In this document: one piece after another, positions 15,423 to 29,522 of the stretch
Numbering within the stretch: the first letter of the stretch is position 1
Layout of the letters: every line of letters starts with the position of its first letter
DNA from: Escherichia coli
GTDB taxonomy: Bacteria; Pseudomonadota; Gammaproteobacteria; Enterobacterales; Enterobacteriaceae
Assembly: GCF_001677475.2 (NCBI RefSeq)
Contig: NZ_CP015229.1
Direction: 5' to 3' (one strand)
DNA length: 64,000 nucleotides
The notes under the pieces: generated by a model
Told to the model about the DNA's origin: nothing
The model's input: the letters and a program-made list of their open reading frames with translations, nothing else
Database searches by the model: none
Made by a program: the position numbers and the translations under genes

Positions 15423-15875
15423 ATGTTACTTAACTGGCAGGGACGCCACTTCATGGAAATAAATCACTCACGAATAACATCGTATGAGATTGCGGATTAC
15501 ATGATCCGCACTAAATCTCTTCTATCAGCGAAAGAACTCGCAGCAATCCTTGAAAAGGAATACCCGCATCTGGATGTCGATAAGCGCGACGTTTATCTGC
15601 GCTTAAAGGCTATCGCTGTGTCTAAGTATTCGTCTGTTTTGATTGATGACAGTACACGCCCACGTAGATTTCAGATCCACTCTCTGAATCCTGAATTCTT
15701 TCGCCGCAGCCGCGCGCCGCGCCGGTTTGATGAAAAACTCCAGAACGAACTCTATATGACGCAGGACGAAAAGGAACGCCGGGAGCACCAGCCTTGGGTA
15801 ATGGCGCGTCAACTTTTCAATAAGGTGGCCCGTCAGCACCGTCATTACGGTAATGCCACATCCGCACGTATCTGA
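15423..15875 (+). CDS. putative late-promoter activator (Lpa-like)
   Basis: 150-aa track ORF immediately upstream of pacA and preceded by a C1 operator, as for P1 lpa; assignment by position and size only. Confidence 0.5.
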   Translation: MLLNWQGRHFMEINHSRITSYEIADYMIRTKSLLSAKELAAILEKEYPHLDVDKRDVYLRLKAIAVSKYSSVLIDDSTRPRRFQIHSLNPEFFRRSRAPRRFDEKLQNELYMTQDEKERREHQPWVMARQLFNKVARQHRHYGNATSARI

Positions 15876-15960
15876 TTGATTGCTTGCCCGTTCCGGGCCT
15901 TTTGACATGTGACTTTCGTTACCCTCGCGTCAAAAAGAGTTTTTACGAAAGGAAGCATAA

Positions 15961-17154
15961 GTGACCTGGGACGATCACAAGAAGAATTTTGCTCGCCTGG
16001 CGCGAGATGGTGGTTACACCATCGCACAGTATGCCGCCGAGTTTAATCTTAACCCTAATACCGCACGTCGTTATCTCCGTGCCTTCAAAGAAGACACCAG
16101 GACAGCGGACAGCCGCAAGCCAAATAAGCCAGTCAGGAAGCCACTAAAAAGCATGATCATTGATCACTCTAATGATCAACATGCAGGTGATCACATTGCG
16201 GCTGGAATAGCGAAAAAACAAAGAGTTAATGCCGTTGTCAGTGCCGCAGTCGAGAATGCGAAGCGCCAAAATAAGCGCATAAATGATCGTTCTGATGATC
16301 ATGACGTGATCACCCGTGCCCACCGGACCTTACGTGATCGCCTGGAACGCGACACCCTGGATGATGATGGTGAACGCTTTGAATTCGAAGCTGGCGATTA
16401 CCTGATAGATAACGTTGAAGCGCGGAAGGCCGCGCGCGCTATGTTGCGTCGGTCCGGGGCCGATGTTCTGGAAACCACTCTTCTGGAAAAGTCTCTTTCT
16501 CATCTCATTATGCTGGAGAACGCCAGGGATACGTGTATTCGCCTGGTGCAGGAAATGCGCGATCAGCAAAAAGACGATGATGAAGGTACTCCGCCTGAAT
16601 ACCGTATCGCGAGCATGCTAAACAGCTGTTCCGCGCAGATAAGCAGTCTGATCAACACCATTTACAGCATCCGGAATAACTATCGAAAAGAAAGCCGGGA
16701 GGCGGAAAAGCACGCTTTATCTATGGGGCAAGCTGGCATTGTTAAGCTGGCATACGAACGAAAGCGTGAAAATAACTGGTCAGTGCTGGAAGCAGCTGAA
16801 TTCATCGAGGCGCATGGTGGGAAAGTGCCGCCCCTGATGCTGGAGCAAATCAAAGCCGATCTGCGTGCTCCTAAGACCAATACCGATGATGAGGAAAGGC
16901 AAACTGCCGTCGGTGGCCCTTCTCTTGAAGATCTGGACAAAGTTGCGCGAGAACGGGCCGCCAACCGCCGCGCCGATGCCGCATTGTGGATTGAGCAACG
17001 TAGGGAAGAAATCGCCGATATCGTTGATACAGGCGGTTATGGAGATGTTGATACTGAAGGTGTATCAAACGAACCATGGCTGGAACAAGACCTGGACGAA
17101 GACGAGGAGGAAGACGAAGAAGTTACCCGCAAGCTATACGGGGATGATGATTAA
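15961..17154 (+). CDS. pacA: terminase (pacase) small subunit PacA
   Basis: 397 aa; GTG start after AAGGAAG; contains the pac hexamer cluster; precedes pacB with a 1-nt overlap. Confidence 0.85.
16154..16312. other. pac packaging site (4 + 3 hexamers TGATCA/TGATCG flanking the cleavage region)
   Basis: TGATCA at 16154, 16161, 16173, 16188 and TGATCG/TGATCA at 16284, 16296, 16307, all containing Dam GATC, inside pacA as described for P1 pac. Confidence 0.7.
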
Positions 17155-18638
17155 TGGCCAGAAGTTGCGTAACGGATCCGCGTTGGCGCGAGCTGGTGGC
17201 GCTATATCGTTATGACTGGATTGCGGCGGCAGATGTTTTGTTCGGCAAAACACCTACCTGGCAGCAGGATCTGATTATTGAGTCTGTGCAGGAACAGGGT
17301 AGCAAGACATCTGTTTCGTCTGGTCACGGTACCGGGAAATCAGACATGACTTCTATCATGATCATGTTGTTCATAATCATGTATCCCGGTGCCCGCGCCA
17401 TTATCGTTGCGAACAAAATTCAGCAGGTAATGACCGGTATATTCAAGTACATCAAGATAAACTGGGCTACGGCCACCAGCCGTTTTCCATGGCTTGCTGA
17501 TTATTTTGTTCTGACAGAAACCGCTTTCTATGAGGTTACTGGTAAAGGTGTATGGACTGTAGTACCGAAGGGCTTTCGTCTGGGAAGTGAAGAAGCTCTC
17601 GCTGGTGAACACGCAGACCATCTTCTGTATATTATCGATGAAGCCTCCGGTGTCAGTGATAGAGCTTTCGGTATCATCACCGGTGCTCTTACCGGACAGG
17701 ATAACCGCATCTTATTGCTGTCACAGCCTACACGCCCAAGCGGCTATTTCTACGATACTCACCATAAACTGGCCAAGCGTCCTGGTAACCCTGATGGCGT
17801 TTATACGGCGATCACGCTTAACAGTGAGGAATCACCGCTGGTAACGCCAGCATTTATCAAAATGAAGCTGGCGGAGTACGGCGGGCGTGATAACCCTATG
17901 TACATGATTAAGGTACGCGGCCTATTCCCTAAATCACAGGATGGCTTCCTTCTTGGACGTGATGAGGTTGAACGTGCAACGCGGCGGAAAGTCAAGATTG
18001 CCAAAGGATGGGGCTGGCTTGCATGTGTGGACGTTGCTGGTGGTACGGGACGGGATAAGTCCGTTATCAATATCATGATGGTGTCCGGCCAGCGAAATAA
18101 ACGCCGTGTAATCAACTATCGAATGCTGGAATACACAGACGTTACAGAAACGCAGCTTGCTGCCAAAATTTTCGCAGAATGTAATCCTGAGCGATTCCCC
18201 AATATCACCATAGCGATAGACGGCGATGGCCTGGGTAAAGCAACGGCGGATCTGATGTACGAGTATTATGGTATTACCGTACAGCGTATACGCTGGGGTA
18301 AAAAGATGCATAGCCGTGAAGATAAGAGCCTGTACTTTGATAAACGTGCTTATGCCAACGTTCAAGCCGCAGAGGCCGTAAAATCTGGTCGTATGAGACT
18401 GGATAAGGGTAATGAAACTATTGAGGAAGCGTCGAAAATCCCTGTAGGGATTAACTCCGCAGGTCAATGGAAGGTGATGAGTAAGGAGGATATGAAGAAA
18501 AAACTCAACCTGCACTCACCAGACCATTGGGATACATATTGTTTCGCTATGCTGGCGGATTATGTTCCCCAGGATGAAGTGCTTAGCGTCGAAGACGAAG
18601 CGCAGGTTGATGAAGCTCTGGCATGGCTTAATGAATGA
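17154..18638 (+). CDS. pacB: terminase large subunit PacB
   Basis: 494 aa; ATPase motifs GHGTGKS and LYIIDEASG. Confidence 0.9.
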
Positions 18639-18641
18639 ATA

Positions 18642-18658
18642 TTTGCTCTAATAAATTG
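18642..18658 (+). promoter_or_regulatory. C1-repressor operator (Op51-like, heading the immI-like module)
   Basis: TTTGCTCTAATAAATTG, 15/17, immediately after the pacB stop. Confidence 0.65.
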
Positions 18659-18699
18659 TGTTTTTTAACTACCGATGTTACATTGAACCTGACCTCTTG

Positions 18700-18815
18700 C
18701 GCCTTGAGGCATTTTCGGTTTATGCTGATCAGGCACCTCATTAAAACGGGTGCCGGGATTGGCCTCCCGCTTAAGTCTAAGGCGATACAGACGCCGCTCG
18801 CGTCTTTTTTTGTAT
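18700..18815 (+). ncRNA. candidate c4-type antisense regulatory RNA region
   Basis: GC-rich structured stretch ending in hairpin GACGCCGCTCGCGTC plus a T7 run, between the operator and the icd ribosome-binding site; placed by analogy with P1 immI; boundaries approximate. Confidence 0.3.
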
Positions 18816-18976
18816 CGGCGTACACGCACACCTCTACAATGGTGGGCTGTATGGGGCTACCTTCGGGTAGGCTGGTTACCTTGGACGCCAGTAAGGCCAA
18901 CTCCGTACAGTCCACCGCCAGCAAGATTGGTCTCTTCTGCGGTGGTTACATACCAACGTCTAAGGAGGCTGCCATT

Positions 18977-19198
18977 ATGGCTACTACCCCTACCCCAGCT
19001 CACCCTGAATTCATCTGGCGCTTTTACTCCTGCCAGAAACGTCACTATCACTTCGTTATCGCACCAACAGAAGATGAGGCACGTTCTCAGCTTCCGGATG
19101 CTCCCTGTATTTTCTCCGCCCGTTTTTCTACCGATTTGCGCAATTCTCTCAGTTACTGGTGCCCCCCTGTAAACGCTTGTGCTCAGGAGGGACTATGA
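18977..19198 (+). CDS. icd: Icd-like small protein
   Basis: 73 codons; TAAGGAGG 6 nt upstream of the ATG; stop overlaps the ant ATG (ATGA), matching the P1 icd/ant arrangement. Confidence 0.55.
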   Translation: MATTPTPAHPEFIWRFYSCQKRHYHFVIAPTEDEARSQLPDAPCIFSARFSTDLRNSLSYWCPPVNACAQEGL

Positions 19199-20310
19199 GA
19201 ACGTCATTAGTCACCCGTGAAGAGATGATCGAGGCAATTGAACAGCACACTGCTTGTATCAGTACCAGGGATATACCAGGCGTTATAGCCAACTACTTCA
19301 TGATCACCAAACAACTTTACCGGAGAAAGGACAAGAACGCGGTTCACCGCATCCTGCTGTCTGATATCCGCGAATACCTGCTCGAACAGGGGCATCTGAA
19401 TTACGCAACCGTCGCAGCCGAAACACGCAAGGAGGCACACAGAATGAAAGCAACTAACGTTAAATCAGAAAAAGTTCATGCACCTTCAGTTCAGGAGTCA
19501 GAGCTGGTGGTTGTTCAGAATCAGTCTGATGAAATTCCCGTTCTGGAATGGCTGGGAGTGCGTGTAGTGACAACCAAGATCCTTGCTAAGGGGTATGGGA
19601 CCGATGCGGATAACATCAAGAAGAACTTTTCCCGTAATGCTGAACGTTTTTGTGAAGGCAAGCATTTCTATAAAGTTATTGGAGATGATTTGAACAATTT
19701 GCGGGTGACTTTAAGTAACTCACAAAATCCCATCTCTCCTAAAGCCCGCTCACTCATCCTCTGGACGGAACGAGGAGCTGCCCGTCACGCAAAAATGCTC
19801 GAAACAGATCAGGCATGGGCATTCTTTGAAAAACTGGAAGACAGCTACTTCCGACAAAAAGAACAGCAACCGATCGCAATCCCCCAGACGCTTCCAGAAG
19901 CTCTGCGCCTGGCTGCCGAGCTGGCTGAACAAAAGCAACTTCTGGAACAGAAAACCCACCAGCTAAATCAGCAGCTGGTGGCCGCAGCCCCTAAAGTCGA
20001 TTTTGCCGACCGGGTATCAGTGGCTAAGGGGATCCTGATTGGGAATTTTGCAAAGGTTGTTGGACTTAAGCAAAATGCGCTGTTTGCCTGGTTACGGGAG
20101 AACGGCATCCTGATTGCGTCCGGCGGACGTAAAAATGTACCGTTTCAGCAGTACATAAACGCCGGATATTTCACAGTGAGAGAAGTGGTGCTGGATGATG
20201 AAGATGGCTATCAGATACGGCTGACGCCTCAATTAACGGGGAAAGGCCAACAGTGGTTGACGCGTAAACTGCTCGATGCTGGCTTGTTAAAACCGGTGGC
20301 GGCTGAATAA
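19195..20310 (+). CDS. ant: antirepressor (Bro-N/ORF6N-like N-terminus, KilAC/ANT C-terminal domain)
   Basis: 371 aa from ATG 19195 (track ORF starts at 19159); C-terminal KNALFAWLRENGIL...QQYINAGYF is a typical ANT-domain signature. Confidence 0.75.
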   Translation: MRTSLVTREEMIEAIEQHTACISTRDIPGVIANYFMITKQLYRRKDKNAVHRILLSDIREYLLEQGHLNYATVAAETRKEAHRMKATNVKSEKVHAPSVQESELVVVQNQSDEIPVLEWLGVRVVTTKILAKGYGTDADNIKKNFSRNAERFCEGKHFYKVIGDDLNNLRVTLSNSQNPISPKARSLILWTERGAARHAKMLETDQAWAFFEKLEDSYFRQKEQQPIAIPQTLPEALRLAAELAEQKQLLEQKTHQLNQQLVAAAPKVDFADRVSVAKGILIGNFAKVVGLKQNALFAWLRENGILIASGGRKNVPFQQYINAGYFTVREVVLDDEDGYQIRLTPQLTGKGQQWLTRKLLDAGLLKPVAAE

Positions 20311-21895: not shown

Positions 21896-21929
21896 ATAAC
21901 TTCGTATAGCATACATTATACGAAGTTAT
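21896..21929. other. loxP recombination site
   Basis: exact ATAACTTCGTATA-GCATACAT-TATACGAAGTTAT (13-bp inverted repeats around an 8-bp spacer). Confidence 0.97.
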
Positions 21930-21948
21930 CTTAAGGGTTATTGAACAT

Positions 21949-22021
21949 GATCAATTTACCTGTAAATCCATACAGTTCAATACCTTATCAGGTCAAATAG
22001 TGATCACTTGATCATTTGATC
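21949..22021. promoter_or_regulatory. GATC (Dam site) cluster between loxP and the cre-proximal genes
   Basis: four GATC within about 70 bp, three of them in TGATCACTTGATCATTTGATCA; P1 cre promoters are known to be Dam-sensitive. Confidence 0.4.
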
Positions 22022-22118
22022 AAGGTTGCGCTACGTAAAATCTGCGAAATGTTGGCAGTGTTAGTGCTCCAGATTTCGCGTAGCGCACTTAGCACCACCA
22101 ATCAATCAGAGGTGAAAA

Positions 22119-22359: not shown

Positions 22360-22755
22360 ATGTTTAATAGCCTGACGGATGCCAAGGTAAACGCCTTACT
22401 TAAGGACGCAAAACAAAAAGCTGCTAACCCTGGAACGAGTGAAAATGAACGTGCTATGGCCGTTGCAATTTGGGAGTTAGCAGAAGAAGTAAAGCGAAAC
22501 CGCATGCAGTACACTCGGGTTTACCAGCAATTTGATGGTGCAAGCTGGAAAGATATCGAAGAGGCTGAATATTCAGCATGCAAAGAAGAAAAAAAGACTG
22601 TTCGGATTTTGCATGAAGCAGCAACTCCAATCACTGTAGAAATCCCCGATCACAGATATTTCGAGAACGATGATCTACCTGGGGATGTGATTCGAATTAT
22701 TGATGAGATACTTCATGAACAAGGCTTAACTGTTAAAATTACGCATAATAAATGA
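22360..22755 (+). CDS. hypothetical protein (131 aa), translationally coupled to cre
   Basis: GAGGTG before the ATG; stop overlaps the cre ATG (ATGA). Confidence 0.55.
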   Translation: MFNSLTDAKVNALLKDAKQKAANPGTSENERAMAVAIWELAEEVKRNRMQYTRVYQQFDGASWKDIEEAEYSACKEEKKTVRILHEAATPITVEIPDHRYFENDDLPGDVIRIIDEILHEQGLTVKITHNK

Positions 22756-23783
22756 CTAAATCGTTAACCGTTCACCAAAATTTGCCTGCATTGCCGGTCG
22801 ATGCAACGAGTGATGAGGTTCGCAAGAACCTGATGGATATGTTCAGGGATCGCCAGGCGTTTTCTGAGCATACCTGGAAAATGCTTCTGTCCGTTTGCCG
22901 GTCATGGGCGGCATGGTGCAAGTTGAATAACCGGAAATGGTTTCCCGCAGAACCTGAAGATGTTCGCGATTATCTTCTATATCTTCAGGCGCGCGGTCTG
23001 GCAGTAAAAACTATCCAGCAACATTTGGGCCAGCTAAACATGCTTCATCGTCGGTCCGGGCTGCCGCGACCAAGTGACAGCAATGCTGTTTCACTGGTTA
23101 TGCGGCGGATCCGAAAAGAAAACGTTGATGCCGGTGAACGTGCAAAACAGGCACTAGCGTTCGAACGCACTGATTTCGACCAGGTTCGTTCACTCATGGA
23201 AAATAGCGATCGCTGCCAGGATATACGTAATCTGGCATTTCTGGGGATTGCTTATAACACCCTGTTACGTATAGCCGAAATTGCCAGGATCAGGGTTAAA
23301 GATATCTCACGTACTGACGGTGGGAGAATGTTAATCCATATTGGCAGAACGAAAACGCTGGTTAGCACCGCAGGTGTAGAGAAGGCACTTAGCCTGGGGG
23401 TAACTAAACTGGTCGAGCGATGGATTTCTGTCTCTGGTGTGGCTGATGATCCGAATAACTACTTGTTTTGCCGGGTCAGAAAAAATGGTGTTGCCTCGCC
23501 ATCACCCACCAGCCAGCTATCAACTCGCGCCCTGGAAGGGATTTTTGAAGCAACTCACCGATTGATTTACGGGGCTAAGGATGACTCTGGCCAGAGGTAC
23601 CTGGCCTGGTCTGGACACAGTGCCCGTGTCGGAGCCGCGCGAGATATGGCCCGTGCCGGAGTTTCAATACCGGAGATCATGCAAGCTGGTGGCTGGACCA
23701 ACGTAAATATTGTCATGAACTATATCCGTAACCTGGATAGTGAAACAGGGGCAATGGTGCGCCTGCTGGAAGATGGCGATTAG
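22752..23783 (+). CDS. cre: Cre tyrosine recombinase
   Basis: 343 aa, near-identical to P1 Cre (...TVHQNLPALPVDATSDEVRKNLMDMFRDRQAFSEHTWKMLLSVCRSWAAWCKLNNRKWFPAEPEDVRDYLLYLQARGLAVKTIQQH...); differs at the N-terminus (MTKSL vs MSNLL) and around ASPSPT. Confidence 0.97.
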   Translation: MTKSLTVHQNLPALPVDATSDEVRKNLMDMFRDRQAFSEHTWKMLLSVCRSWAAWCKLNNRKWFPAEPEDVRDYLLYLQARGLAVKTIQQHLGQLNMLHRRSGLPRPSDSNAVSLVMRRIRKENVDAGERAKQALAFERTDFDQVRSLMENSDRCQDIRNLAFLGIAYNTLLRIAEIARIRVKDISRTDGGRMLIHIGRTKTLVSTAGVEKALSLGVTKLVERWISVSGVADDPNNYLFCRVRKNGVASPSPTSQLSTRALEGIFEATHRLIYGAKDDSGQRYLAWSGHSARVGAARDMARAGVSIPEIMQAGGWTNVNIVMNYIRNLDSETGAMVRLLEDGD

Positions 23784-26267: not shown

Positions 26268-29200
26268 ATGTCACTTTCTGTTTATAATAATAAAAAAAAT
26301 AGCTCTTCAGGGGGGAACTCTCCTCGCTTGACCCTACTGGCAGCTATAATCGGCGCATTATTTTCAAATGCTTACGCTTCAACAACTGCTATTAAAATTG
26401 ATAATGATGTTCAAGTTAATAAAGATAACCTCGATATTAATACGGGCAGTAATACAGGAAGTAATGGATATGCGATCTCTGTCACAAATTCAGGTGAACT
26501 AACTACCGAAGGTACAGTGACGTTATCTACAGAAGGTGATAAGGCAAACGGAGTTAATATATCCAGTGGGTCTAAAATTAACTCTCAAGGTGGGATTACA
26601 ATAACCACAAAAGGCAAAAACGCCTCTGGCATTTCACTTGATAATAATTCTTCAATGACTATCGCTAACGGTATGTCAATTACAACAAGTGGGATAAACG
26701 CTACAGGGATTAATGTTGACAAATCTTCACTAACTGTTGAACAAGGTGATATTAACACATCTGGTGTAAATGCTAGTGGTGTTTCTATTTTAAATGGAGG
26801 CCAAGCCAGTTTAAATAAAGTTAACATTACCACATCTGGAGATAATGCCAGAGGTATTGTTAGCTCTGGCATAAATAGCAAAATAGTAATTAGCGACTCA
26901 ACCATTACCACTCTGGGGGATAAAAAACCATCACAAGCATGGGGAGCTCGTGGCATATCTGCCGAAAACAACGGTTATGTTTCACTAACAAATACGCAGA
27001 TTAAAACTGATGGAACAGGGGCTTGGGGAGTATCTGCATCGTCAGCTGGCTCAGCTGAATTAGCTGATGTTCATATTTCCACTTCAGGCCAAAATGGCTA
27101 TGGTTTACGTGCAGATGGCAATAACTCTAGTATATCTGTATCTAAAGGACTCCAGGTAACCACTTCTGGCAAACAAGCTCATGCCGTAACTGCCTCTAAT
27201 AATGGGAATATAAATCTTGGAGTAAATGCATCTCTTGAAACATCAGGGACGCAGGCTAATACCATCCATATCACCGGTGGTAATGGTGGTATAATAACGG
27301 GTGATAGTATCTCAATAAAAACAAATGGCACATCAGCCAAAGGTATATATGTTACGGCTTTAAATCCCTCAGACTCAGCACCTGATTCACGCGTAGAGCT
27401 GACGGGAACATCAACAATCGCCACATTAGGTGATCAGTCAATAGGTGTGTGGGGGCATGGTAAAGTAGCTGATATTAGCTTCGAGCAAATAGCTATTAAT
27501 ACAGCCGGTACTGACTCATACGGTATAAATGCACAAAATGAAGCCACTGTTAATGCCCATACAGCCCAGATTATTACTAAGGGGCTAAACTCATATGGAG
27601 CAACAGCAAATTCAGCTGCAAAAATTACACTTGGTTCTGGTTCATCGATTACAACAAGCGGTGATTATGCTCATGGAATATGGGTCAGTGATGACAATAC
27701 AGTTATTAGTGGCAATAATGCATCCATTCATGTATCAGGAAAAGAGGCTGACTCTGTAGTCGCTGCCAATAATGCAAAAGTTGAGCTTACCCAAGAGAAT
27801 GGGGTGATGATTAGCGAAACTAGATATAACTTTAATGCTAATGGTGGTGCTATTTCCGCCACGTTAGATGGCAGCCAAATAAAGAATAACGGCACATTCA
27901 TCTTCTCAACCAGTAATGATGCCGGTGTGGGAGGGAACGTTGATGTTACAGTCAAGAATACTTCCTTTAATGGCGATATTCGCGCTGATAGTAACAGTAT
28001 TGCCAATCTTTCATTAGAAAATTCCAACTGGACTGGAACCGCGTATAATGGTGGCATTGTTAATTTAGCTAAAAACAGCATCTGGAATATGGTTAGCGAT
28101 TCGGATGTTGCTCATCTTAATAATAATGGCTCTATATATTTGGGCAGCGATGCAAAAAACACTTTAACAATTAATGGTGATTATACTGGCGAAAATGGCT
28201 ATATCTACTTTTCAGGCGTTCTTGGTGACGACACATCTCCAATCGATAAGTTGGTTGTAAAAGGAAATACAGAGGGTAAAACCTTTGTTTCCGTAAACAA
28301 CGTTGGTGGTATTGGGGCACAAACACTCAATGGCATCAACATTATCCAGGTTGATGGTCAATCTAACGGTGACTTTGTACAAGTTGGCCGAATTGCGGCT
28401 GGTGCTTATGATTACACTCTTGGGCGGGGGCAAGGCGATAAAAATGGCAACTGGTACCTAACTAGTGGCAAACAACCTGAGGATCCAACTCCGAACCCGG
28501 ACCCGGAGCCAAATCCGACCCCAACACCAGGTGACAATGATCTTCGCCCAGAAGCTGGTAGCTATACGGCAAACATTGCTGCTGCAAATACTATGTTCGT
28601 GACTCGCCTACACGAACGTCAGGGGCAAATGCAGTATACCGATGTGATTACCGGTGAATTGAAAACTACAAGCATGTGGATGCGTCATGAGGGTGGACAC
28701 AATCGCTGGCGCGACGGAAGCAACCAGTTAAAAACACAAAGCAACCGTTATGTTATGCAACTGGGCGGCGATATAGCACAGTGGGGTTGGAATAAAACGG
28801 ATCGCTGGCATCTTGGCTTAATGGCCGGATACGGTAATGACCACAATAATACAGAATCTGTGCGCACAGGATATCGTTCAAAAGGTAGTGTGAATGGTTA
28901 CAGCACTGGGCTGTATGCCACCTGGTATGCCAATGATGAAACACATAACGGGGCTTACCTAGACTCTTGGGCACAGTACAGCTGGTTTGATAACTATGTT
29001 AAAGGTGATGGATTGCAGAGTGAATCCTGGAAATCAAAAGGACTTACTGCATCACTGGAAACTGGTTATACCTGGAAGGCTGGTGAGTTTACGGGCAGCC
29101 AAGGTGGTTTGAATGAGTGGTATGTCCAGCCTCAGGCTCAGGTCATCTGGATGGGTGTTAAAGCGGACGAACATCGCGAAAGCAACGGTACCCGTGTTGA

Positions 29201-29522
29201 AAGCACCGGAGATGGTAATGTCCGTACCCGTCTGGGCGTGAAAACATGGATTAAAAGCCACAGTCGTATAGATGAAGGCAAATCCCGGGAATTCAGCCCA
29301 TTTGTGGAAGTGAACTGGCTGCATAACACCCGTGATTTTGGTACTCGTATGAATGGTGTGACGGTACATCAGGACGGTGCCCGTAATATCGGAGAAATAA
29401 AAACCGGTGTTGAGGGGCAGATAAATTCCAGACTGAACCTGTGGGGGAATGTAGGTGTTCAAGTCGGTGACAAAGGGTATAACGACACATCTGCAATGTT
29501 GGGTGTGAAGTATACCTTCTGA
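26268..29522 (+). CDS. AIDA-I/Ag43-type autotransporter (adhesin-like passenger, C-terminal beta-barrel)
   Basis: 1084 aa; N-terminal signal peptide, Gly/Ser/Thr-rich repetitive passenger, Pro-rich linker PTPNPDPEPNPTPTP, C-terminal barrel ending ...LGVKYTF; AT-rich codon usage unlike flanking P1-type genes. Confidence 0.85.
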   Translation: MSLSVYNNKKNSSSGGNSPRLTLLAAIIGALFSNAYASTTAIKIDNDVQVNKDNLDINTGSNTGSNGYAISVTNSGELTTEGTVTLSTEGDKANGVNISSGSKINSQGGITITTKGKNASGISLDNNSSMTIANGMSITTSGINATGINVDKSSLTVEQGDINTSGVNASGVSILNGGQASLNKVNITTSGDNARGIVSSGINSKIVISDSTITTLGDKKPSQAWGARGISAENNGYVSLTNTQIKTDGTGAWGVSASSAGSAELADVHISTSGQNGYGLRADGNNSSISVSKGLQVTTSGKQAHAVTASNNGNINLGVNASLETSGTQANTIHITGGNGGIITGDSISIKTNGTSAKGIYVTALNPSDSAPDSRVELTGTSTIATLGDQSIGVWGHGKVADISFEQIAINTAGTDSYGINAQNEATVNAHTAQIITKGLNSYGATANSAAKITLGSGSSITTSGDYAHGIWVSDDNTVISGNNASIHVSGKEADSVVAANNAKVELTQENGVMISETRYNFNANGGAISATLDGSQIKNNGTFIFSTSNDAGVGGNVDVTVKNTSFNGDIRADSNSIANLSLENSNWTGTAYNGGIVNLAKNSIWNMVSDSDVAHLNNNGSIYLGSDAKNTLTINGDYTGENGYIYFSGVLGDDTSPIDKLVVKGNTEGKTFVSVNNVGGIGAQTLNGINIIQVDGQSNGDFVQVGRIAAGAYDYTLGRGQGDKNGNWYLTSGKQPEDPTPNPDPEPNPTPTPGDNDLRPEAGSYTANIAAANTMFVTRLHERQGQMQYTDVITGELKTTSMWMRHEGGHNRWRDGSNQLKTQSNRYVMQLGGDIAQWGWNKTDRWHLGLMAGYGNDHNNTESVRTGYRSKGSVNGYSTGLYATWYANDETHNGAYLDSWAQYSWFDNYVKGDGLQSESWKSKGLTASLETGYTWKAGEFTGSQGGLNEWYVQPQAQVIWMGVKADEHRESNGTRVESTGDGNVRTRLGVKTWIKSHSRIDEGKSREFSPFVEVNWLHNTRDFGTRMNGVTVHQDGARNIGEIKTGVEGQINSRLNLWGNVGVQVGDKGYNDTSAMLGVKYTF

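Follow-up and report, generated by a model that had tools for sequence, protein, structure and literature searches.

Gene context and the hexamer array within pacA

We analysed a 64-kb stretch of Escherichia coli DNA, which is called the window in the following; all positions refer to it unless they are marked as P1 positions. The window carries the genes for the two pacase subunits together with a late promoter, the gene of the late promoter activator, and the loxP site with cre. The coordinates of these features and of the elements inside pacA are compiled in Table 1. The genes pacA, pacB, lpa, c1, and cre as well as LPpac and loxP are all intact.

Table 1 Features of the pac region and the loxP region, with the basis of each assignment
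Feature	Position	Strand	Basis
lpa, late promoter activator gene	15423..15875	+	PF25716 BPP1_LPA, E=3.1e-57; ~98% identity and collinearity to lpa of P1
LPpac, Lpa-dependent late promoter of pacA-pacB (-22 box, -10)	15907..15925	+	P1 annotation 90475-90493
pacA, pacase recognition subunit, 397 aa, GTG start	15961..17154	+	ORF; phrog_1711 terminase, E=2.6e-203, full-length
HEX4 block, four TGATCA at 16154, 16161, 16173, and 16188	16154..16193	.	Sequence read and pattern search
pac core between the hexamer blocks, exactly 90 bp	16194..16283	.	Measured
Predicted IHF binding site (AAACAAAGAGTTA)	16216..16228	+	P1 protein_bind 90784-90796, sequence identical
Predicted pac cleavage zone	16236..16245	.	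P1 misc_features transferred
HEX3 block, TGATCG at 16284, TGATCA at 16296 and 16307	16284..16312	.	Sequence read and pattern search
Eighth hexamer, TGATCG, 23 bp past HEX3, outside minimal pac	16335..16340	+	Pattern search
pacB, large terminase (ATPase/nuclease), 494 aa, overlaps the pacA stop	17154..18638	+	phrog_2, E=3.3e-40; P1 pacB in the same place
ash-like, icd-like, ORF6N/KilAC antirepressor module	18635..20310	+	PF10554 Phage_ASH, PF10543, PF03374
loxP, Cre recombination site	21896..21929	+	Exact 34/34 match, 0 expected by chance
cre	22752-23783		PF00589

Between lpa and the start of pacA, LPpac included, the alignment shows 100% identity to P1. PacA shares 96.2% amino acid identity with its P1 counterpart and 98.2% with that of RCS47. 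At the nucleotide level, about 1.3 kb around pac is 98.5% identical to RCS47, 96.9% to SJ46, 96.3% to P1, and 96.1% to P7. In a Pfam scan, PacA matched none of the classical small-terminase families and gave only a weak profile match to an N-terminal HTH at residues 10-44.

Among the nine ORFs of at least 450 aa in the 64-kb window, the Pfam scan found no methyltransferase of the Dam type. The sole N6-MTase domain in these nine ORFs belongs to a 2255-aa DarB-like protein. Hence, methylation of the GATC sites would have to be provided by host Dam or by a gene outside the window. Further downstream, an autotransporter gene at 26268-29522 represents non-P1 cargo of the element.

Inside pacA, a search with the pattern TGATCR located seven hexamers, each of which contains a GATC (Dam site). 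Four of them lie at one end and three at the other end of a 159-bp span (16154-16312). The original prediction had proposed just such a 4 + 3 layout of TGATCA and TGATCG hexamers, all with GATC, around a central region of roughly 90 bp within the pacA coding sequence, and all seven were found within the interval that it had given. The span corresponds to codons 65-118 in the 5' third of pacA, and pacB follows downstream. The TGATCG at 16335 lies just beyond the predicted interval and had not been mentioned in the prediction.

The array is the top GATC/TGATCR cluster of the 64-kb window, with 7 sites per 160 bp as compared to 4 per 160 bp in the next-best cluster, which is located beside loxP. 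When the 55 plus-strand TGATCR sites were placed at random, no more than 5 ever fell within 160 bp (2000 trials). Dinucleotide-preserving shuffles (n = 300) gave a maximum of 4 hexamers per 160 bp against the real 7. Synonymous re-coding of the PacA peptide yielded a mean of 2.09 hexamers, and seven or more were reached in 3 of 20,000 trials (P = 1.5e-4). The hexamer cluster is thus far beyond chance, and neither the base composition nor the protein sequence of PacA explains the hexamers. Their reading frame is mixed: five of the seven are read as xxT GAT CAx/CGx and encode D-H, D-Q, or D-R, and the other two are in a different frame (ATG ATC A and GTG ATC A).

Correspondence with the pac site of P1

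The pac site of phage P1 has been dissected since 1987. Studies of this site were reportedly published by Sternberg and Coulby in 1987 and 1990 and by Skorupski et al. in 1992 and 1994; those of 1987, 1990, and 1994 are said to cover the methylation dependence and the packaging direction in P1. The P1 site comprises 161 bp in pacA with seven TGATCA/G repeats (HEX4 and HEX3) that contain Dam sites, and it also includes an IHF site and the cleavage site (PMC10028697). Synonymous mutation of the hexamers lowered the P1 titre about 9-fold (PMC10028697). Cleavage of P1 pac depends on adenine methylation (as cited in PMC10028697).

We used the curated P1 sequence (AF234172/NC_005856) as the reference and transferred coordinates by the relation window = P1 - 74568. 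In an ungapped alignment, positions 90722-90880 of AF234172 are identical to window positions 16154-16312 at 156 of 159 positions (98%). The window differs from P1 pac only at 16205, 16213, and 16293, and the difference at 16293 is a common polymorphism. From 16214 to 16292, the window is identical to P1, cleavage positions included. Across P1, P7, RCS47, SJ46, phiW39, and 813R1, the ungapped alignment likewise shows no change in any of the seven hexamers, in the IHF site, or in the cleavage zone. A match to the pac architecture of P1 had been part of the original prediction, and it is borne out by this alignment, in which the hexamers, the IHF site, and all four cleavage positions are retained.

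The predicted IHF site at 16216-16228 is the best match to the consensus WATCAANNNNTTR in the region, agreeing with 8 of the 9 specified positions.

For the cleavage zone, transfer from P1 would place the lower-strand cuts at 16236/7 and 16242/3 (P1 90804/5 and 90810/1) and the upper-strand cuts at 16238/9 and 16244/5 (P1 90806/7 and 90812/3). Virion DNA ends had originally been expected near 16230, which is close; the transferred positions point to 16236-16245 instead. For P1 itself, PhageTerm recovered two main termini, 6 bp apart, as Sternberg & Coulby had reported (PMC5557969).

Because of the hexamer layout, the near-identity to P1, the unchanged IHF and cleavage sequences, and the intact pacA and pacB genes, we consider it very probable that packaging of a P1-like (Punavirus) phage-plasmid is initiated at 16154-16312 and that this segment is its pac site, orthologous to P1 pac. 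In P1, pac has the same position in pacA, its hexamers lie at corresponding coordinates, and it is likewise preceded by LPpac and followed by pacB. Apart from the three substitutions, the two differ in the distance between pac and loxP, which is 3.99 kb in P1 and 5.67 kb here. The pac site of a close relative of P1 is already known and is an ordinary find.

Other headful phages, whose pac is recognised by a small terminase, offer a partial parallel. In P22, SPP1, and Sf6, the recognition site is likewise located in or beside the small-terminase gene, and the first cut is likewise imprecise and followed by a unidirectional headful series (PMC5557969). Unlike P1-type pac, however, the pac sites of these phages have neither GATC-hexamer arrays nor Dam gating.

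Carried over from P1, the site would work as follows. During late lytic growth, Lpa would activate LPpac, and PacA and PacB would be made. The pacase would recognise the hexamer blocks HEX4 and HEX3, and both recognition and cutting would depend on adenine methylation of the seven GATCs, carried out by the Dam of the host or the Dmt of the phage. A pac with too little methylation would be bound but not cut, which would limit the frequency and timing of pac use. IHF, together with HU, would bend the 90-bp core at its predicted site and thereby bring the hexamer blocks together. With the GATC sites in the fully methylated state, the pacase would introduce staggered cuts that span roughly one turn of the helix and have their centre at 16236-16245. 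The DNA end facing pacB would enter the prohead, and headfuls would be filled along the concatemer through pacB, c1, and loxP, with pac serving as the start only for the first headful of a series. For the element in the window, we infer binding, methylation dependence, cleavage positions, and packaging direction by analogy with P1.

Conservation of the hexamers and alternative explanations

The close set consisted of n = 34 distinct pacA sequences from six phage records, the IMG/VR loci L010-L039, and the window. The IMG/VR scan for PacA returned close relatives only (94-99% aa identity), and the power of a conservation test on them is therefore low. Among the 34 sequences, 1 of 42 hexamer positions is variable as compared to 20 of 117 positions elsewhere in pac (p = 0.015). 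For third-codon positions, the numbers are 0 of 14 in the hexamers versus 10 of 39 elsewhere in pac (p = 0.047). Both comparisons point to purifying selection at the DNA level. HEX4 is complete in 33 of the 34 sequences, HEX3 is invariant in all 34, and the eighth hexamer is kept in 33. In L015, a natural variant, both hexamer 4 and the eighth hexamer have been lost.

In P7, RCS47, SJ46, phiW39, JL22, vB_EcoM-813R1, and about 560 PLSDB plasmids, no variation is seen in the seven hexamers or in the eighth, TGATCG. The pacA genes of the Punavirus relatives are 96-98.5% identical to that of the window, RCS47 being the closest with 98.5%.

A stronger conservation test was provided by a lineage of about 70% amino acid identity, which was retrieved by tblastn and is represented by Cronobacter phage JK004 and the Salmonella arizonae plasmid CP053320. 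Counted from the start of pacA, six hexamers in both share their offsets with the window (+200, +212, and +227 in one block and +323, +335, and +346 in the other). At these offsets, the inter-block spacing is 96 bp in the window, JK004, and CP053320 alike. Between JK004 and the window, the hexamers are identical at 36 of 36 positions, whereas the other pac positions are identical at 56 of 117 (48%; p = 4e-10). For CP053320, the corresponding numbers are 35 of 36 and 58 of 117 (p = 3e-8).

Within the first block, this lineage retains hexamers 2-4 and lacks hexamer 1 (16154). In its place, a GATC hexamer is found elsewhere, at +174 in one of the two sequences and at +274 in the other. The T located 5' of each GATC persists despite changed amino acids (I>N, N>R, and G>R in JK004). 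A TGATCG is present at +389, 15 bp further on than the eighth hexamer of the window. The A-rich, IHF-like core is partly kept, and between the hexamers both the DNA and the encoded stretch of protein are largely rewritten (48-50% nt identity). As the hexamers stay at fixed offsets while the rest of pac diverges in this lineage, the sequence comparison indicates that the hexamers and their spacing are constrained as DNA, as one would expect of a protein-recognition array.

Such constraint bears on the possibility that the site derives from a genuine pac but has fallen out of use. The window would then belong to a defective or cryptic P1-like plasmid, and the hexamers would persist by recency or due to the PacA frame. 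E. coli very often harbours plasmids of the P1 type (600 PLSDB records and at least 232 complete genomes), and many of them may be non-inducible. Natural loss of hexamers does occur, as in L015, and the 64 kb of the element that are visible include non-P1 cargo such as the autotransporter. The hexamers, however, are far better conserved than nearby synonymous sites, also across the lineage of 70% aa identity, which shows that selection on the DNA continues, and according to the re-coding test they are not forced by the frame. In addition, the set from lpa and LPpac through pacA, pacB, and c1 to loxP and cre is intact. We therefore regard a disused pac as unlikely.

The GATC cluster could also be mainly a Dam/SeqA-type regulator of pacA expression or of plasmid replication timing. 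GATC clusters of P1 do have regulatory roles elsewhere, as the cre regulatory region beside loxP contains annotated Dam sites, and in the window this region forms the second-densest TGATCA cluster. The site within pacA, on the contrary, is in each of its bases the orthologue of the fragment that is sufficient for P1 pac cleavage and packaging, and with its position 190 bp into the coding sequence it is not at a promoter. Moreover, the methylation control known from P1 targets cleavage directly, and the explanation as a pac site already includes this control. Hence, we judge a primarily regulatory role to be very unlikely.

That the hexamers are a by-product of a repeated Asp-His/Asp-Gln motif in the PacA peptide, with a DNA motif devoid of function, is extremely improbable: five of the seven do encode D-H, D-Q, or D-R, and D-Q/D-H recurs in diverged PacA proteins, but a pure protein-motif origin is largely refuted by the re-coding test, in which the same peptide was given random synonymous codons, by the two hexamers in a different frame, and by JK004, where the T before GAT is kept while the amino acid changes, and synonymous hexamer mutations cut the yield of P1 (PMC10028697).

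More distant PacA-like genes, with 25-30% identity, occur on rep_cluster_1704 plasmids of E. coli and E. fergusonii, on one Enterobacter plasmid, and on one Leclercia plasmid. In these lineages, blocks of GATC hexamers with altered flanks are located in the gene or just before it. The rep_cluster_1704 plasmids and the Enterobacter plasmid have GGATCA/TGATCC hexamers. In the Enterobacter plasmid, the sequence cTGATCAggcaggGGATCAtttaggGGATCA encodes ADQAGDHLGDH, which is comparable to NDQHAGDH in the window. On the Leclercia plasmid, the heptamer TGATCAC occurs four times, with a spacing of 12 bp, immediately upstream of the gene. The cluster statistics per locus are weak in these lineages (p = 0.03-0.43), and the blocks are suggestive, a lead and not a result.

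Instead of being a peculiarity of P1, a GATC-hexamer pac may nevertheless be an ancestral and strongly constrained feature of the whole supergroup of PacA-bearing phage-plasmids, with diversified details; we put this forward tentatively, as a reading that is possible but somewhat more doubtful than not. If it is true, the flanks of the hexamers could set the packaging specificity between co-resident P1-like elements. The rep_cluster_1704 plasmids are probably the P1-g2 group, whose elements are said to have no pacA homologue (PMC7969092). Should the two be the same, this statement needs to be qualified.

The sub-lineage and its distance from pac to loxP

Two of the three differences from P1 are located in the core. 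The substitutions 16205 A>G and 16213 G>A lead to E82G and E85K in PacA and lie 3-11 bp upstream of the predicted IHF site. Neither change occurs in any other of the 34 distinct sequences or in 564 PLSDB plasmids. The best PLSDB match to the pac allele of the window is 97.9% identical over 191 bp, and none of the 564 plasmids matches it exactly. The exact 159-bp pac was found in six independent assemblies, all of them draft or metagenome assemblies. One of these, GCA_018683295.1, matches window positions 5961-27156 at 99.98%. The exact PacA protein is also public (ANO88953.1 and others; 18 contigs examined), and one of its occurrences is on a contig of 5.5 Mb. As the identical 159 bp recur in six independent assemblies, we rejected sequencing errors as the origin of the private substitutions; the allele belongs to a real, circulating sub-lineage.

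Packaging in P1 runs from pac towards loxP. A distance of about 5.6 kb between pac and loxP had been predicted for the window, and we measured 5,584 bp from the last hexamer and 5,674 bp when counting from the main cut in the upper strand (transferred from P1). The gene order in the window is pacA-pacB-(ash/ant)-c1-coi-loxP-cra-cre. The orientation of loxP and its neighbours are the same as in P1, with c1 and coi upstream and cra and cre downstream. P1, in contrast, has no ash/icd/ant module, and its c1 starts 25 bp after pacB. The additional ~1.7 kb between pac and loxP is thus due to the ash/icd/antirepressor module that is located between pacB and c1. This pacB-ash-icd-ant-c1 arrangement was found with full coverage in at least 232 of 5,426 complete E. 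coli genomes and also in 600 PLSDB records. Among the matches listed, all are plasmids of 96-114 kb, mostly of about 96-99 kb.

For loxP to be part of the redundant end of the first headful, packaging has to proceed from pac towards loxP, and the genome length plus 5.67 kb must not exceed one headful. The P1 head holds about 105 kb, which corresponds to about 112% of the P1 genome (PMC10999674). With a headful of ~105 kb, the redundancy would amount to ~6-8 kb for relatives of 96-99 kb, and over the range of 96-114 kb it would go from ~9 kb to none. The margin of P1 is wider, as 4.0 kb are needed and ~11 kb are available. The window covers 64 kb of the element, and over its full length it matches no complete E. 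coli genome and no PLSDB plasmid. A first headful would hold two copies of loxP only if the full element does not exceed ~99 kb. The original prediction had placed loxP in the terminally redundant region of the first headful. The distance is as predicted, and loxP and cre are intact and lie on the pacB side of pac in the P1 gene order. The placement in the redundancy is supported conditionally; it is plausible, with a thin margin. In genomes of ~97-99 kb in this sub-lineage, loxP may lie at the very edge of the first-headful redundancy.

For the field, the finding of the pac site as such adds nothing fundamental. What it adds is quantitative evidence for selection at the DNA level on the hexamers and their spacing across diverged PacA lineages. 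Mildly new are the family-wide conservation of the hexamer architecture, the small margin left for the redundancy, and the existence of GATC-hexamer blocks with distant homologues of PacA. For the annotation of the window, the result settles on a P1-like phage-plasmid whose packaging origin appears to be competent. This makes the element a candidate generalized transducer of host DNA and of its own cargo, e.g., the autotransporter. The insertion that separates pacB from c1 is common, and it narrows the margin by which loxP falls into the terminally redundant region. If loxP does lie at the edge of that redundancy, Cre-mediated cyclization would perhaps be open to few or no virions of this sub-lineage.

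Sequences inserted around loxP and cre

Only 25 bp separate pacB from c1 in P1, whereas the window carries an immI-type module of three ORFs at this position. Because of this insertion, the distance from pac to loxP is 5.67 kb, compared with 4.0 kb. A search of 5,426 complete E. coli genomes found the module in 232 of them; each match listed is a plasmid of 96–114 kb.

The 131-aa ORF is absent from P1, in which cre begins 8 bp past cra. A Pfam search with this ORF gave no match. The same ORF is present in p95JB1A and in the locus L047. A few kb downstream of cre, an autotransporter gene is carried as cargo; it is not known to be among the P1 genes.

The cre regulatory region, which adjoins loxP, contains the TGATCA cluster that ranks second in density within the window. 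At position 22001, the P1 sequence TGACCA is changed to TGATCA (C>T). This substitution creates three TGATCA hexamers in tandem with 8-bp spacing and raises the number of GATC sites in the region to four, compared with three annotated Dam sites in P1.

Features of the window outside the minimal pac site
Feature	Position	Description
Eighth hexamer, TGATCG	16335-16340	23 bp past HEX3, the second pac hexamer block; outside minimal pac
immI-type module	18635-20310	ash-like ORF (PF10554), icd-like ORF and ORF6N/KilAC antirepressor; between pacB and c1
cre regulatory region	21948-22022	TGATCA cluster
131-aa ORF	22360-22755	between cra and cre
Autotransporter, 1084 aa	26268-29522	PF03797 beta-domain and PF18883 autochaperone

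PacA and its relatives

The exact PacA protein of the window (P0001, encoded at 15961-17151) is also on record in a 5.5-Mb contig. This hints that at least one genome may carry this P1-like element within its chromosome, either through integration or through a join made in assembly.

In the lineage with about 70% PacA identity, namely Cronobacter phage JK004 (L041, 475-700) and the Salmonella arizonae plasmid CP053320 (L043, 1000-1200), the offsets and spacing of six pac hexamers are identical to those in the window, while both the DNA and the protein between the hexamers are rewritten. Hexamer 1 is replaced in each by a GATC hexamer, which lies at a different place in the two sequences.

PacA-like genes with only 25–30% identity occur in L044, L045 and L046 (rep_cluster_1704 and Enterobacter plasmids) and in Leclercia pE1_003 (L042), where they adjoin lpa and a terminase gene. 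In L044, L045 and L046 they show blocks of GATC hexamers with altered flanks (GGATCA/TGATCC). In pE1_003 (190-240), four TGATCAC heptamers with 12-bp spacing lie upstream of the gene. Statistical support for clustering at these loci is weak. P1-g2 elements have been reported to be without pacA homologues (PMC7969092). If these plasmids belong to P1-g2, their PacA-like genes look like distant pacA homologues in that group.

The eighth hexamer and a natural hexamer-loss variant

The eighth hexamer is kept in 33 of the 34 close relatives (distinct pacA sequences, including that of the window), and the lineage with about 70% PacA identity has a TGATCG placed 15 bp further on. It is not known to have a role in P1. 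It is missing in L015 (IMGVR_UViG_2713896768_000036; pacA position 375), which has also lost hexamer 4 by a G>A change within GATC (pacA position 228). As a natural variant, L015 could show how many hexamers pac needs.
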